Assembly (NCBI GenBank): GCA_947501605.1
Contig: CANMWZ010000019.1
Span: 1-64,000, forward strand
Direction: 5' to 3'
Source: Planctomycetota bacterium
GTDB lineage: Bacteria; Planctomycetota; UBA1135; UBA2386
Length of the DNA: 64,000 nucleotides
A program made the translations under genes and the position numbers. The notes under the pieces were generated by a model, which worked only from the letters and a program-made list of their open reading frames with translations, searched no databases and was not told where the DNA came from. Positions 35,069 through 58,266 of this stretch are shown in pieces; the first letter of the stretch is position 1; each line of letters begins with the position of its first letter.

Positions 35069-35997
35069 GCATCCTGCTCCTGGAGTCGTTGCATCCGGAC
35101 GCGGAGGCACTGCTGACGGCGCAGGATGAAGTGGTCCGGGCCCAAGACCCAAATGCGCCCCGCTGCGACTTCGCCTCGGTGCGCGCGATCATGACCCGCG
35201 GTCGCGGTCGGATCGGCGAAGACCTTCTGCGTCGCTGCCCCAAGCTCGTGGCCATCGCCCGCGCTGGCGTCGGCCTCGACAATCTGGACACTGCGGCGGC
35301 GGCGCGGCTGCGCATCCCCGTGGTGTTCGCTCCCGGCGGCAACACGCTGACGGTGGCAGAACACACGATCGCGCTGATCCTCGACCTCGTGCGGGGCATT
35401 TCGCGCGGCGCTGCCAGCGTTGCCGCCGGTCGCTGGGAGGACCGCGCGCGCTACCAAGGCAATGAGATCCGCGGCCTCGTGCTCGGCGTCCTGGGCTTTG
35501 GCAACATCGGCCGACGCGTCGCGCAACTGGCATCGGCCTTCGACATGCAGATCCTGATCGCCGCCCGCGCCGGACGCCCACCGCCGTCGCAGTTTCCGTC
35601 CGCGCCGCTCCACGACGTGCTCGCGCGTGCCGACGTTGTCACGCTGCATCTGCCGCTCGACGCCACGACCAAGGGACTGATCGGCGCGCGCGAACTCGCG
35701 GCGATGAAGCGCACGGCGTTCTTGGTCAACACTGCCCGCGGCGCCCTGATCGACGGCACAGCCTTGCGCGCAGCGCTGCTCACCGGCCAGCTCGGAGGCT
35801 TTGCGGCCGACGTGCTCGAGCAAGAACCGCCGAGCGCGGATGACCTGCTGCTGCGTTCGGACCGGGTGCTGTTGACGCCGCACAGCGCATCGCTGACCAA
35901 CCTGACGTATCGAACGATGTGCGTCGACACCGCCACCAACGTCGTGGCGCTGTTGCGGGGCGAGGAACCGGCGGCCCTCTGCCTCTACCGCGGTTGA
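35065..35997 (+). CDS. D-isomer-specific 2-hydroxyacid dehydrogenase
   Basis: RAGVGLDN, VAEH, LGFGNIG, LHLP, NTARG, DVLEQEP, TPH. Confidence 0.93.
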   Translation: MSILLLESLHPDAEALLTAQDEVVRAQDPNAPRCDFASVRAIMTRGRGRIGEDLLRRCPKLVAIARAGVGLDNLDTAAAARLRIPVVFAPGGNTLTVAEHTIALILDLVRGISRGAASVAAGRWEDRARYQGNEIRGLVLGVLGFGNIGRRVAQLASAFDMQILIAARAGRPPPSQFPSAPLHDVLARADVVTLHLPLDATTKGLIGARELAAMKRTAFLVNTARGALIDGTALRAALLTGQLGGFAADVLEQEPPSADDLLLRSDRVLLTPHSASLTNLTYRTMCVDTATNVVALLRGEEPAALCLYRG

Positions 35998-53067: not shown

Positions 53068-53463
53068 TCAGAGCTTGCGCTCGCGGGGAGTCTCGGTTGC
53101 TGGAATGAGCGGCGTCGGCAAGTCGAGACTCTTGGCTTCCTTCAGCAAGTCGCGGGCATTCTTGGCCGACTGCGTGCCGCTGGCGAGCGGCAAGCGCTCG
53201 GCCGGCATCGCGCTCACCTTGCGGATGCGGGCCCAGACACCACAGCCGGCGTTGGCATCGAGCGCGCCGATGTCGGTGACCTTTGGGTGGCCCTTCAGCA
53301 GGTCGCGCGCGAGCTTGGCCAGGATGCCGGCACCGCGGCCGTGCACGATCTCGATGCGCAGATTGCCCTGCGCTTGCGCCGTGTCGATGAGGCGCAGGAT
53401 GGCCGCGGTGGCGCGCTGGGAGTCGAGACCGTGGAGATCGATGCGAGCGTTCGGACTAGTCAT
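53068..53463 (-). CDS. Stand-alone Smr domain protein
   Basis: IDLHGL, IVHGRGAGIL, N.G.G. Confidence 0.88.
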   Translation of the reverse strand: MTSPNARIDLHGLDSQRATAAILRLIDTAQAQGNLRIEIVHGRGAGILAKLARDLLKGHPKVTDIGALDANAGCGVWARIRKVSAMPAERLPLASGTQSAKNARDLLKEAKSLDLPTPLIPATETPRERKL

Positions 53464-53524
53464 CACGGAGCCTCGGAAGCGCCGCAGGGTGTCACGAACG
53501 ACCGCCGACGTCAACTCGGCAGCC

Positions 53525-54655
53525 TCAGGCCGGCAACAGCGGCTGCAAGGCGGCGAGCACCTTGTCGGCCTGCCGCATCATGCCGAGGTCGTTGGGATGC
53601 GAGCCGTCGGTTGTGCCTTCGCCATCGGTGCCCAGCAGGTCGGCGCCATCGAGCAGGTGTAGTCCCTTGACGCCATCGCGCACCATCGCCGCGACCGCGG
53701 CGCGCAAGGCGGCGCGGCGCCGTTGATGCTCGCGCGCGCGGGTCTCGTCACACCAGGCATTGGCAAACGTGCGATCTTCGACGAGCAGGATTGGCGTGTC
53801 CTTGCGGGCCAGACGCAGTTGCCGCACCAGCGGCTCGGTGCGTTCGGCGACCTGTTCTGTGCTCATGTTGGGCAGGCAGTCGACGACGAACACCTCGGGA
53901 TCGAGTTCGACGAGGAACTGCACCACTTCGCGCTCCATGCGCCCGTTGCCGGCGAAGCCGAAGTTGAACACTTCGCGATCGAGGGTGCGCCCGACAATCG
54001 CGGGCCACGCCATGCCCGGCCGCGACGCCGAGGCGCCGTGCAGAATCGACGTGCCGTAGCAGACGATCGAACGACCTGCCGTCGAACGCCGCGGCAGCGG
54101 CAACAGGTCAAAGCCCTCGCCGACGCCGAGTTCGAGCTTGTCGACGCCGTTGTAGAGCGGCAGGTAGAGCTGGAACGACCGTGGCTCGGCGCGCGTCGGC
54201 AGACCCTGGACCAGTTGCATCTCCACGACCTGCCCCGCCGGTCGGGACACCTGCATCCACCGCCAACGCGCGCCATCAAGACCGTAGAGATCGACCCCGC
54301 TGACGCCAGTCGCCGGCATGTGGGCCAAGTCGATGCGCGCGCTGGTCAGACGGTAGCGAACGTGGATCTCGGGACTCGCGGTCGCAAAGCGGACGACCAT
54401 GCCAGCGCTGTGGCGCGATAGGTCCCACACCTCGCTGCGCACGACGGCCTCGGCTCCGAGCGGCAAGCGGTCGTAGGGCGCTTTGCGAGCCGCGAAGGCG
54501 CGGCCTTCGATGGGGAAGTCGGCGACATCGATCCACGTTGGCGGCGGCGAGCACGGAGCAACAGGAGTCGGTCCAGCGGCAGCGCTCGAGGGCAACCGCA
54601 GGCTCGCCGTCGCCAAAGCGGTGCCGAGGAAGGAACGACGCGAGAGGAAGGGCAT
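53525..54655 (-). CDS. Tat-exported SGNH/GDSL hydrolase with GxDLY N-terminal domain
   Basis: SRRSFLG, YDRLP, SGVDLY, YGTSI, FGFAGNG, DCLPN, DGSHPND. Confidence 0.92.
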   Translation of the reverse strand: MPFLSRRSFLGTALATASLRLPSSAAAGPTPVAPCSPPPTWIDVADFPIEGRAFAARKAPYDRLPLGAEAVVRSEVWDLSRHSAGMVVRFATASPEIHVRYRLTSARIDLAHMPATGVSGVDLYGLDGARWRWMQVSRPAGQVVEMQLVQGLPTRAEPRSFQLYLPLYNGVDKLELGVGEGFDLLPLPRRSTAGRSIVCYGTSILHGASASRPGMAWPAIVGRTLDREVFNFGFAGNGRMEREVVQFLVELDPEVFVVDCLPNMSTEQVAERTEPLVRQLRLARKDTPILLVEDRTFANAWCDETRAREHQRRRAALRAAVAAMVRDGVKGLHLLDGADLLGTDGEGTTDGSHPNDLGMMRQADKVLAALQPLLPA

Positions 54656-54764
54656 CGGCGCGAAGATACCCCTTCGACTGAGCCTGACAGCAATCACCAG
54701 CACCAACGCTGTCGCGTTCATTCTCGGGCAGTTCGAGGGCAAGCGAACCGCGTCGTCGTCCGCG

Positions 54765-55211
54765 CTACTTGAGCCGCGACAGTCGCGCTGCGACCTCGCG
54801 CCCGTCCTTGCTCACGAGTTCTCCGTCCTCGTAGAGCCACAGCGTCGGCAGCTGGCGGATGCCGTACTGCAGCGCTACCGGCGACTGCCAGTCGCCGACA
54901 TCGACGCGGCGGAGTTTGACCTGCGGATGCTGTTCAGCGAGCGCCGCCAACTGCGGGCCCAGGATCTTGCACGCGGGTCAAAACTCGGCGGTGAACTCCA
55001 CGATCAACAGGCCCGAGGACGTCACGTAGGACTCGACGTTCACGCGCTCGCCGGTCGAGATCGTCGCGACCTCTTCGGCGGCCATGAGCGCGGCCGCACG
55101 GGCGCGCTTGGGCTTGCTGTTCTGGTGATGGACGACGAAAGCGACCGATCCGAGCATCAGCATGACCACCGCCGCGATTGCGACCTTCAACATGGGCAGT
55201 CGATCGGCCAT
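54765..55211 (-). CDS. Membrane-anchored thioredoxin-family protein with UxxC motif (probable selenoprotein; TGA at 54978-54980)
   Basis: ORFs 54978-55211 and 54765-54950 are in one frame, separated only by TGA: LIVEFTAEF*PACKILGPQL...VDV...YGIRQLPTLWLY. Confidence 0.85.
54942..54977 (-). promoter_or_regulatory. Candidate bacterial SECIS hairpin 3' of the in-frame UGA
   Basis: cccgcgtgcaagatcCTGggcccgCAGttggcggcg can be paired by hand into an interrupted stem whose apical loop starts with GG 19 nt after the UGA. Not computed. Confidence 0.4.
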
Positions 55212-55605
55212 TCGGTGGTCGGGCTGGAGCCACAGGTCCTGCGACGGGTGGCGCCGTACCGCCGACCAACCCAGATCGGTCCGTCGGCAGCAGGCGACCG
55301 GCCGCGCCTTCGGTCACTGGCATCGTGCGCGTGGCGCCTTGCAGCTCGGGGCGCGTGGGGGCGCAGCGATCGAGTCGCACCGCCTCGTACTGGTCCTGCG
55401 GCCCCCCCTCCAGCGTCCGCGCCGATGCTCGCAGTAGCGCAACAAGACGGACTGGATCAGCACGTCCGTAGCACGAGCGCAGGAAGGTCGATCGCCACCG
55501 CGCCCAGCGCGGCGGGACTCTTGCCGATGGCCACGAACGGCGCGTCGTCGACGGCTTGCACCTGCAGCTGCCTCTAGGTCGACAACGGCGGACCGCCGTG
55601 GTTGG

Positions 55606-56379
55606 ATGCTGGAGCGAACGCCGCCCATGACGCCTCCAGACCACGACCCCAGGAGCGTCACCCACGGCGAGGCGGCGCTCGGGCCGACAGTGCGCGGTTA
55701 CGACCGCATCCGTACGGTGGCCAGCTTTGACGAGTTGCTCGACACGCCGCTCACGGAGCCGGTCAACGCGGTTTGCTGGCAGCGCCAACTCGATGGCGAC
55801 TTCGCCGAAGTCGTTCGCCTGCTGGCAGCGCGCGATGGTGTCACCACCATCGACGAAGACCTCCTTCGTGCATTGCCGCTGGGCAAGGCTGGCCAACTCG
55901 CGGCCGCGACTTTGATTGCCGACCTTGCGCAGTTGCGAGCGCGTGGCCACGAGCCGGTGCTCGAGTGCATTCGTGGCTACCCGCGCGACGACGACAGCCC
56001 CTTGCCGACCGACGTCTACTCGTTCCACGTCGACAGTGCGACGGTGCCGACCGACACCATCCTCTGCAGCTACACCGCACCGGCGAGCGAAGGGCTGCGC
56101 AACGACGAAGCCCAGCGACAGATCGACGTGCCGGCGGTCCGCGCCCGCTTGCTCGCACACTTCGGCGGCCGCGACGACGCGGAGTTCGTCGCCTACGTGC
56201 GCGCGAACTTCTTCGACCTGCACTACGCAGCGCGTGCCGGCACGCGGCCATTCTCGTTTGGCGTCGGCAACCTATGGCGCCTTGCGGTAGCGCATCCGCT
56301 CGCCGCCGTTGTGCCGTGCATTCATCGCGCTCCGAGCACGGCACCGGCGGCACTGCCGCGCTTGCTCCTCATCAGCTGA
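55606..56379 (+). CDS. DUF1826-like protein (HxD...H putative metal site)
   Basis: NAVCWQR, SFHVD, LCSY..P.SE, HRAP, RLLL. Confidence 0.7.
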   Translation: MLERTPPMTPPDHDPRSVTHGEAALGPTVRGYDRIRTVASFDELLDTPLTEPVNAVCWQRQLDGDFAEVVRLLAARDGVTTIDEDLLRALPLGKAGQLAAATLIADLAQLRARGHEPVLECIRGYPRDDDSPLPTDVYSFHVDSATVPTDTILCSYTAPASEGLRNDEAQRQIDVPAVRARLLAHFGGRDDAEFVAYVRANFFDLHYAARAGTRPFSFGVGNLWRLAVAHPLAAVVPCIHRAPSTAPAALPRLLLIS

Positions 56380-56496: not shown

Positions 56497-57174
56497 CTAC
56501 TGCAGCGGCAGAAGGTCGAGCTTGCGGAACTCGCACGCCGCCCCTTCAGCTTGGATCGCGATCTGACCGTGATCCGCGGTGCAGTCGGCACCGTCATTGA
56601 CCACCGTGCCGTTGACCAAGACACGAATCCCGCGACCGCGGCACTCGATGACCATCGTGTTCCACTCGCCGAGCGGCTTCTCGGCGCCGTCGGTCAGGTT
56701 CTTGATGCGCCGCGCCCGATCGCCGTCGGTGCCCCAGCGGTCTCTCGGTCCGCGACGCGCTTCCATGTCGGGCACCGCGATGTCTTCGCCGATGCACCAG
56801 AAGTCGCCGGCATTGCCTTCGTGCAACTGCACCTCGATCGACTGCGGAAACATGTCGTAGAGCCGGCGCGGCACCGAACTGTGCACGAGCACGCCGCAGT
56901 TGCCGGGCGCGCCTGGCCAACGCCATTCGAGCGTCAGGCGGTAGTCGCGGTACGACGCATCGGTGATCAGATGTCCTTCGGGTTCGCCTTGGCTCACGAG
57001 GATGCCGTCCTTGACGACGAACGATGGCGCCGCGCCGCCGCCGTCATTCGCCGGCACGTCGGCATGCCAGCCGGCGAGATCGATGCCGTTGCACAACGGC
57101 CGCGGGGAGGCCTGGCAGGCAACAGCAATCGCAACGATGGGGAGCAGCACGGCGCGAGCGAGACGACGACGCAT
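56497..57174 (-). CDS. DUF1080 family lipoprotein
   Basis: Lipobox AVAC, NG.DL.GW, Y.DY.L.LEW, GNCGVL, IEVQ, GEWN, IAIQAEG. Confidence 0.9.
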   Translation of the reverse strand: MRRRLARAVLLPIVAIAVACQASPRPLCNGIDLAGWHADVPANDGGGAAPSFVVKDGILVSQGEPEGHLITDASYRDYRLTLEWRWPGAPGNCGVLVHSSVPRRLYDMFPQSIEVQLHEGNAGDFWCIGEDIAVPDMEARRGPRDRWGTDGDRARRIKNLTDGAEKPLGEWNTMVIECRGRGIRVLVNGTVVNDGADCTADHGQIAIQAEGAACEFRKLDLLPLQ

Positions 57175-57309
57175 GGTCGCATCATGGCACGCGAGGATTC
57201 TCGCGCCAGCCGGCGCCGCGATCCCAACGACGCGCACGATCGCCGGGCACGGGCGAGCTACGGGCCAAGGGATCGCCGCCGCCTCGGCGTAGACTGCGCA
57301 GCCGCCACG

Positions 57310-58266
57310 ATGAGCATCCTCGCGCACATCGGCAACACGCCGCTGGTCCTACTCCGCACGCTCTCAATGGGCTTGCCGTTCCCGGTTCTTGCCAAGTGCG
57401 AGCACCTGAACCCCGGCGGCTCGATCAAGGACCGCATCGCGCTCGCGATCGTCGATGACGCCGAAGGCCGCTCGCTGCTGCGCAAAGGCGACACGATCAT
57501 CGAAGCGACGGCGGGCAATACCGGCGTGGGTCTCGCTCTCGTCGCTGCCGTACGCGGCTACCACTTGGTCTGCGTGATGCCCGCCAAGATGTCGCTCGAC
57601 AAGCGCGTGGCGCTGACGGCACTCGGGGCCCGCGTCATCATCACGGACAATGCGCCGCCGACGAGCCCGCTCAACTTCCAAGTCGTCGCCCGGCGCCTCG
57701 CCATCGAGCACGGTTGGTTTCTCGCCGACCAGTTCGCCAATCCCGCCAATGTGCGGGCCCACGAGACGACGACGGCCGAGGAGATCCTGCAGCAGGTCGG
57801 CGGCCCGATCGGCGCCTTCGTCAGCGGCGCCGGCACCGGCGGTACCCTAAGCGGCGTCGGCCGACGGCTCAAGGCCACCGACCCGCGCGTGCGCATCGTC
57901 GTGGCCGACCCGATCGGCTCGAGCCTCGCGCACTGGCTCGAGACCGGAGAGCTCGGCCCCGATGGCAGCTACGAGCTCGAAGGCATCGGCGCCAGCAAGG
58001 TGCCGGAGAACCTGCATCGCGAAGTACTCGACGCCGCCGAGCGAGTGACCGACGCCGAGAGCTTTGCCATGGTGCAACGGCTGGTGCGCGAGGAGGGGAT
58101 GCTCGTCGGCGGCTCGGCGGGCGCCAACGTCGCGGCCGCGCTGCGGGTCGCGGCGCGCGGCGGTCTCTGCGGCCCCGTGGTCACGGTGCTGTGCGACAGC
58201 TGGGATCGATATCGAGGCAAGCCGTGGATGCAGGGCTGGGACGAGCGGCGATCAACGAGTTCTTGA
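57310..58266 (+). CDS. PLP-dependent cysteine synthase / cystathionine beta-synthase family protein
   Basis: IGNTPL, KCEHLNPGGSIKDR, EATAGNTG, QFANP.N, GAGTGGT, EGIG. Confidence 0.93.
   Translation: MSILAHIGNTPLVLLRTLSMGLPFPVLAKCEHLNPGGSIKDRIALAIVDDAEGRSLLRKGDTIIEATAGNTGVGLALVAAVRGYHLVCVMPAKMSLDKRVALTALGARVIITDNAPPTSPLNFQVVARRLAIEHGWFLADQFANPANVRAHETTTAEEILQQVGGPIGAFVSGAGTGGTLSGVGRRLKATDPRVRIVVADPIGSSLAHWLETGELGPDGSYELEGIGASKVPENLHREVLDAAERVTDAESFAMVQRLVREEGMLVGGSAGANVAAALRVAARGGLCGPVVTVLCDSWDRYRGKPWMQGWDERRSTSS

Follow-up and report, generated by a model that had tools for sequence, protein, structure and literature searches.

Described relatives of the locus

Thioredoxins that carry selenocysteine (Sec) are an established group of bacterial selenoproteins. 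Table 1 of PMC13188914 gives the thioredoxin domain PF00085 with a UxxC motif as an experimentally verified family, represented by WP_010956703.1, and the same survey also gives several predicted thioredoxin-fold UxxC families; the terms "Planctomyc" and "signal peptide" are absent from its text. Selenoproteins that bacteria export are the subject of 10.1101/2022.07.06.499078, and the main text of the BSepDB paper mentions neither planctomycetes nor thioredoxin. Split "thiol-disulfide isomerase-like thioredoxin" candidates, two of them in the planctomycete genome P1, appear in Table S9 of PMC4807772 (2016). Judged from listings of the openly accessible literature on Planctomycetota selenoproteins and on periplasmic or signal-peptide UxxC thioredoxins, no description of this anchored or lipoprotein Sec-thioredoxin subfamily was found. 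Membrane-anchored extracytoplasmic thioredoxins are themselves well known, in the form of ResA, CcmG, TlpA, and StoA.

The window analyzed here, a 64,000-nucleotide stretch of a Planctomycetota genome, carries on its minus strand a gene (54765..55193) for a predicted Sec-thioredoxin of 142 residues. Like the verified Sec-thioredoxin, presumably a protein of Treponema denticola, it has a PF00085 domain, Sec at the first CxxC position, an in-frame UGA, and a downstream SECIS element within the coding region; unlike it, as judged from the family descriptions, the window family has an N-terminal anchor or lipoprotein signal. It differs from canonical TrxA in having F-U-P-A-C rather than WCGPC, in being anchored, and in falling into a clade of its own (support 97); the TrxA model TIGR01068 gives it 52.2 bits against a cut-off of 96.8, and no other NCBIfam model is above its cut-off for this protein either. 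With ResA, CcmG, TlpA, and StoA, the window protein shares a single N-terminal anchor, a short linker, a thioredoxin domain, and probable recycling by DsbD/CcdA, but it lacks the redoxin insertion and has Sec. Its NCBIfam match to StoA is weak (21.7 bits versus 210), there is none to ResA, TlpA, or DsbE, and no cytochrome-c maturation genes lie next to it; by analogy, it may still work like these reductases. A thioredoxin fold with a Sec motif is also common to SaoT (NF040730), VPGUxxT (NF041383), HUIPC (NF047660), and TsoX, and none of the named thioredoxin-fold selenoprotein NCBIfams is matched by the window protein (E ≤ 0.001) or by two of its relatives (E ≤ 1e-4). The P1 candidates of PMC4807772, which can be compared by description only, are likewise thioredoxin-like planctomycete proteins encoded by a split gene pair with an in-frame UGA, but Table S9 gives them without a SECIS element, whereas the window gene has one. 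Membership in the known Sec-thioredoxins, within an uncatalogued anchored or lipoprotein subfamily, is well supported.

Gene structure and thioredoxin fold

The initial annotation gave no strand; the gene is on the minus strand, where translation from the ATG at 55211 down to 54765 gives 77 codons, a TGA, 70 codons, and a TAG stop (54767-54765). The lone TGA (54978..54980) falls on the first Cys position of the thioredoxin CxxC motif (F-U-P-A-C; read-through sequence IVEFTAEF*PACKILGPQL), so that a single stop codon divides one frame exactly where the initial annotation had placed it. Read as Sec, this codon would be U72, the attacking residue of U-P-A-C, and the resolving Cys75 (TGC, 54969..54971) is invariant in 18/18 Sec-type domains. 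The protein length of 148 residues given in that annotation needs revision: a second in-frame ATG at 55193, which yields 142 residues, is the more likely start, because orthologues begin there, because the corresponding 71-residue N-terminal half is found more often in databases (24 contigs, versus 4 for a near-identical 77-residue form), and because the first ATG sits upstream of a conserved promoter-like box. The C-terminal half is stored as a separate 61-residue protein on 30 contigs, in keeping with the expectation that gene callers split such genes.

A sequencing error at the TGA had been named as a possible explanation, and the codon is identical in two other assemblies that bridge it without a differing base (X10 record 1 and X11 record 7), one of DNA and one an RNA-library contig; the other two assemblies aligned (X5 and X12) do not bridge it. 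The DNA assembly, which is not flagged as the source, matches 53400-55339 base for base. The two RNA-library assemblies, which are contigs only and come from one study, cover the stretch evenly, genes and spacers alike, and so are no evidence of transcription.

The joined protein has an intact thioredoxin fold. Residues 42-142 (54768..55070, minus strand) form a domain of five strands and four helices according to Pfam, the AlphaFold model, and Foldseek. The PF00085 match reaches 57.1 bits (cut-off 23.5; E 2e-15) and stops at profile position 87 of 103. The AlphaFold model, built from a 17-row alignment (mean pLDDT 87.5), consists of an N-terminal helix (residues 2-18), a low-confidence linker, and the thioredoxin domain, with pLDDT of 95-98 over residues 41-140. 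The top Foldseek matches are thioredoxins (E 1.6e-7), with TM scores of about 0.5 by query length and about 0.6 by target length. The cis-proline loop Leu115-Pro116 (QLPT within GIRQLPTLWLY; 54846..54851) has a Pro invariant in 17/17 sequences and a Leu conserved in at least 90%, and homology suggests the cis geometry. A PF00085 match over its cut-off, UxxC, and the cis-Pro loop, the features by which a Sec-thioredoxin was defined, are all present.

Family distribution and Sec/Cys interchange

Family members occur in 17/60 related genomes, every one with TGA at the Sec column. Sixteen of these genomes have single-domain members with 35-53% identity, and the seventeenth (G023) has a two-domain member. 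With the window's own genome included, 18/18 Sec-type domains have TGA at this column, so its placement is not due to chance. In the tandem protein of G023 (L038:1051-1851), domain 1 has U-G-A-C with a SECIS element and domain 2 has C-H-A-C without one. No member was found in four genomes of the same genus (62-84% complete), so that the family has a patchy distribution. When 300 other genomes of the phylum were searched with a profile, additional loci emerged, of which 29 were fetched and 25 read by the motif parser (L069, L071, L076, and L081 were missed): 19 have TGA, 5 are family Cys loci (6 domains), and 1 is a canonical thioredoxin. The 16 orthologues share 49% identity with the query on the N-terminal side of the TGA and 52-54% on the C-terminal side, versus 7% in the linker. 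The alignment therefore has the properties anticipated for a selenoprotein, TGA or Cys at the column and conservation on both sides, and the close relatives carry TGA instead of all having Cys, as a simple nonsense mutation under relaxed selection would have implied.

Full-length forms in protein databases have Cys or another residue at this position and none has Sec. They include a Cys protein 68% identical to the window protein (P0003), and since this nearest database relative has Cys, Sec is dispensable in some lineages. Exported proteins with W-C-G-P-C make up a broad subfamily further out. Two closely related database proteins found on one contig each (P0004 and P0005) have Glu at the Sec position (E-A-A-C and E-M-A-C) and are possibly a non-canonical monothiol offshoot. 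A quick tree over 107 columns, in which 40 of 76 inner branches are open and from which two database proteins that lack a parsable motif were omitted, sets the family apart from the canonical TrxA rows and intersperses Sec and Cys forms with 12-13 changes, at least 3 of them forced by strong branches; it does not give the direction of change. Cys forms occur both in genomes with a selB match (G224, G161, G193, and G154) and in genomes without one (G122 and G081). Pattern scans found 1 locus in genome contigs and 109 weak, mostly generic thioredoxin matches in metagenome contigs, and carry no information here, since a pattern back-translated with Cys codons is blind to TGA. The Atlas search returned generic thioredoxin clusters only.

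SECIS hairpin and Sec machinery

A bacterial SECIS hairpin lies within the coding sequence at 54938..54961 (minus strand), with a 5-nt loop, AGUUG (54952-54948), 25 nt after the UGA, a stem of 4 bp, a bulge, and 4-5 bp, and a folding energy of -12.9 to -14.5 kcal/mol. The bSECIS model of PMC13188914 specifies a loop of 3-9 nt with G among its first two nucleotides, a stem of 4-16 bp, a distance of 16-37 nt from the UGA, and an MFE of at most -7.5 kcal/mol; applied directly, without bSECISearch, each of these published values accommodates the window hairpin. The initial annotation had called the hairpin weak, and this holds for the single sequence, which folds no more stably than its shuffles (z -0.18 to +1.25), but not across orthologues, where the element is strongly conserved and covarying. 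Over 18 sequences, the four codons at +8 to +11 from the UGA hardly vary in their DNA letters (CCT 15/17, CAG 18/18, TTG 18/18, and GAG 17/17), whereas elsewhere in the same genes TTG serves 18/212 Leu and CCT 4/99 Pro; genome-wide usage is 14.8% for TTG and 7.9% for CCT, and another near-invariant Leu of the family uses five codons. The covariation score of the stem is 0.243 versus 0.079 in shuffled alignments, with all slid controls lower, and 0/500 shuffles reach it, a count that overstates the signal in that the orthologues are kin and not independent. In the stem alignment 85% of cells pair, 4 pairs are changed on both sides, and RNAalifold recovers the same stem. In the window gene itself, a U-A pair has become G-C by compensatory change at the cost of a Glu-to-Ala substitution. 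A descriptive hairpin rule finds the element in 31/37 TGA loci, 0/7 Cys family domains, and 1/10 canonical thioredoxins; it was written after the Sec loci had been seen, so it favors them, and the loci are again kin. Six of the 37 TGA loci thus fail it. Two other TGA genes of the genome, unrelated to this one, also have an AGUU-N loop, as AGUUC and AGUUU.

The complete Sec machinery whose absence would have spoken against recoding is present in the genome (91% complete): selA (470.7 bits), selB (335.2 bits), selD (348 bits), and a tRNA-Sec with anticodon UCA (79 bits) are all over their curated cut-offs. The selD gene directly follows selA (G000:C4:41082-43372; L001 and L010) and itself contains an in-frame TGA, in a U-x-x-K motif that is followed by a hairpin. 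Among the TGA-bearing genomes tested, selB was found in 21/22, the exception being G187 (90% complete). All 17 family-bearing relatives have selA, but selA is over its cut-off in 59/61 genomes and the DsbD transmembrane domain is found in as many, so the co-occurrence of either with the family is non-discriminating. TGA is the main stop codon of this genome, ending 1856/2259 modelled open reading frames; UGA recoding here is thus site-specific, and a changed genetic code is excluded. Taken from sequence evidence, decoding of the TGA in the window gene as Sec is close to certain.

Proposed redox role, probable orientation, and alternative readings

The reading that we consider very likely as a whole is that the locus encodes an intact, 142-residue, membrane-anchored Sec-thioredoxin, an envelope-facing reductase recycled by DsbD. 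SelB with Sec-tRNA would bind the AGUUG-loop hairpin 25 nt downstream so that the UGA is read as Sec; the N-terminal helix would anchor the protein with its thioredoxin domain outward, a location that relatives would reach through lipoprotein or cleavable signals. By analogy with thioredoxins, the Sec72 selenolate would attack a disulfide or an oxidized cysteine on an envelope protein, Cys75 would resolve the mixed bond and leave a Se-S form, and this form would be re-reduced, most likely by the DsbD of the genome fed from cytoplasmic thioredoxin. The Sec72/Cys75 chemistry with re-reduction by DsbD seems on balance plausible. The genome encodes a DsbD with N-terminal, transmembrane, and C-terminal domains, as well as high-scoring canonical thioredoxins, which together could serve as the electron supply. 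The presence of DsbD is no proof of partnership, because it is near-universal here and unlinked to the gene. The DsbD gene (L090:1708-7859, on C9) encodes two similar N-terminal Cys-pair domains and is followed by genes for Cys-type TlpA-like exported proteins.

A reducing-type enzyme is indicated by the Leu that precedes the cis-Pro, since a hydrophobic residue there lowers the redox potential and Thr marks isomerases (PMC2665069). We modestly favor a general role, in which envelope disulfides would be repaired or reduced, over a dedicated pathway, because there is no conserved neighborhood. An envelope selenoprotein acting instead as an oxidase or isomerase, or as a sink that takes up peroxide or metal(loid) ions directly, is unlikely but deserves the most weight among the alternatives: the P-A dipeptide differs from the G-P of thioredoxins, no gene link to DsbD exists, several other exported UxxC proteins in the genome suggest that roles may be divided, and two database relatives have E-x-x-C. 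Against such functions, the residue before the cis-Pro is Leu and not Thr, the model has neither a DsbA-type helical insertion nor a DsbC-type dimer domain, its top structural matches are plain thioredoxins, and many Cys relatives have W-C-G-P-C.

The orientation of the DsbD-fed reductase depends on its N terminus. Residues 4-21 (55131..55184, minus strand) form an 18-residue hydrophobic segment with a Kyte-Doolittle mean of 2.65 over 15 residues, a predicted signal anchor without an adjacent A-x-A or lipobox. The N-terminal membrane or signal segment proposed at the outset proves to be a family trait, with 15-21 hydrophobic residues in 34/37 TGA loci (two unparsed and one weak). A lipobox pattern gave 8 matches, of which 3 (L024, L061, and L067) look like a chance Cys in a transmembrane helix; the convincing lipoboxes are those of L033, L036, L037, L066, and L078, and the signal of L038 looks cleavable. 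These five lipoboxes and one signal indicate that the family works outside the cytoplasm, and placement of the thioredoxin domain of the window protein there is likely as well. Basic residues typically flank the cytoplasmic side of a transmembrane helix (the positive-inside rule). In the window copy, four basic residues (Lys/Arg) and no acidic one occur in the 15 residues after the helix and one Lys precedes it (two basic residues on the 148-residue start), which under this rule could place the domain in the cytoplasm; with no cleavage motif either, the orientation of this copy is less sure than that of the family. A selenoprotein tethered to the inner membrane face, with its domain cytoplasmic and recycled by thioredoxin reductase, is nevertheless improbable, given the acidic mature N termini behind the lipoprotein signals of L033, L036, L037, and L066, the cleavable-looking signal of L038, and the neutral or acidic residues that follow the helix in many anchored members. 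Of the earlier claim that the protein is exported or tethered, export is thus supported by the lipoprotein signals of some relatives and would extend to this copy by kinship.

The two readings that deny Sec fare far worse than these. Bacterial Sec insertion is incomplete, and low selenium would probably yield some truncated peptide; a true stop giving a functional 71-residue membrane peptide, or an altered code in which UGA means Trp, Cys, or Gly, is nonetheless very improbable, since TGA is the main stop codon, the only tRNA with a UCA anticodon found in the genome is tRNA-Sec, and termination there would break off the fold at the active site. Databases do hold separate 71- and 61-residue frames, and the closest database protein has Cys, but a nonsense mutation, a pseudogene, or a sequencing error is refuted beyond any practical doubt by the presence of this TGA in 37 loci spread over many families, by conservation that is equal to either side of it, by the tie of the SECIS hairpin to TGA forms, and by the two other assemblies without a differing base.

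Upstream motif and gene neighborhood

A G-Y-C-G-A-T-like box, resembling a -10 element, lies 8-9 nt before an in-frame start in 13/18 close loci, often with TC(A/C/G)AG 15-16 nt further upstream, and was seen in only one of the more distant loci. At the window locus the pair reads TCCAG-N15-GCCGAT (55203..55228, minus strand) and ends 9 nt before the ATG at 55193. The box resembles Escherichia coli FliA sites (PMC4183435), and two FliA/WhiG sigma genes are over their cut-offs in the genome. The motif is weakly enriched genome-wide, its TCAAG form occurring 3, 4, and 3 times at spacers of 14-16 versus 0-2 elsewhere; a looser form is not enriched genome-wide. A sigma-28-like promoter for the Sec-thioredoxin gene is thus a candidate and a lead only, and, if it is used, the mRNA would begin at 55193 and have no leader. 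The same motif stands 7-10 nt before an ATG on C3, C13, C14, C21, C22, C31, and C35 (L116-L124), where several of the genes are lipoprotein-like and others encode a GntR protein, a UDP-glucose dehydrogenase, and an inositol monophosphatase; the nine genes have no common function.

The neighbors of the window gene are an Smr-domain protein (53068-53514, minus), an SGNH hydrolase (53525-54742, minus), a 257-residue open reading frame without a Pfam or NCBIfam match (55606-56379, plus), a 3-keto-disaccharide hydrolase (56497-57327, minus), and a cysteine-synthase-like PLP enzyme ending at 58266 (plus). Within about 1.5 kb, no neighbor is common to the 18 loci, except between two same-genus genomes. 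The Smr protein, the SGNH hydrolase, the 3-keto-disaccharide hydrolase, and the cysteine-synthase-like gene were considered as partners and rejected, as they are not conserved beside orthologues.

Other candidate selenoproteins and significance

Four more proteins with signal peptides and an in-frame TGA in U-G-P-C motifs are encoded in the genome (L083, L084, L086, and L087; C18:32545, C32:8515, C1:343603, and C15:32957, all minus strand). They are TlpA/ResA-like, Thioredoxin_7, and Redoxin proteins, and none is over an NCBIfam cut-off. A SelW-like C-x-x-U protein (L088; C7:58886, minus strand) is over the cut-off of TIGR02174, a known selenoprotein family. An exported FG-GAP-repeat protein (L085:741-2081, plus strand, on C5, with TGA at 35864) has the motif N-W-U-C-I-G-M-S-P. 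This W-U-C family is found in 36/61 genomes, with exactly one TGA in 59 of the 60 matches listed, and 18/20 loci from relatives (L096-L115) have this motif together with a hairpin, loop AGUUC/U, that hardly varies. The protein has no NCBIfam match and is absent from the 119-family table of PMC13188914, and within the accessible literature on selenoproteins and FG-GAP repeats nothing relevant to a bacterial FG-GAP selenoprotein was found. Table S9 of PMC4807772 contains ASPIC-UnbV/FG-GAP candidates with Gly homologues, which resemble the W-U-C family by description only. This FG-GAP candidate may be more novel than the Sec-thioredoxin.

With UxxC thioredoxins already catalogued among selenoprotein families, the novelty of the window gene is limited, and the gene reveals no new chemistry or recoding mechanism. 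Its recognition mends a systematic annotation error, in which the gene is stored as fragments of 71 and 61 residues and only Cys forms are full length in databases. With frequent Sec/Cys interchange and loss of the SECIS element in Cys forms, the subfamily offers a compact system for studying the rise and decay of a recoding signal within coding sequence. Tentatively, the window Sec-thioredoxin could be a small generalist reductase within a large, mostly unannotated, DsbD-fed envelope selenoproteome, together with the four other UxxC proteins and the FG-GAP W-U-C protein, several of which share a C-AGUUN-G loop, and its gene could possibly be activated by a factor of the sigma-28 type and expressed from a leaderless mRNA. 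The family adds to the evidence for selenium chemistry in the cell envelope of an order in which selA is near-universal (59/61 genomes).
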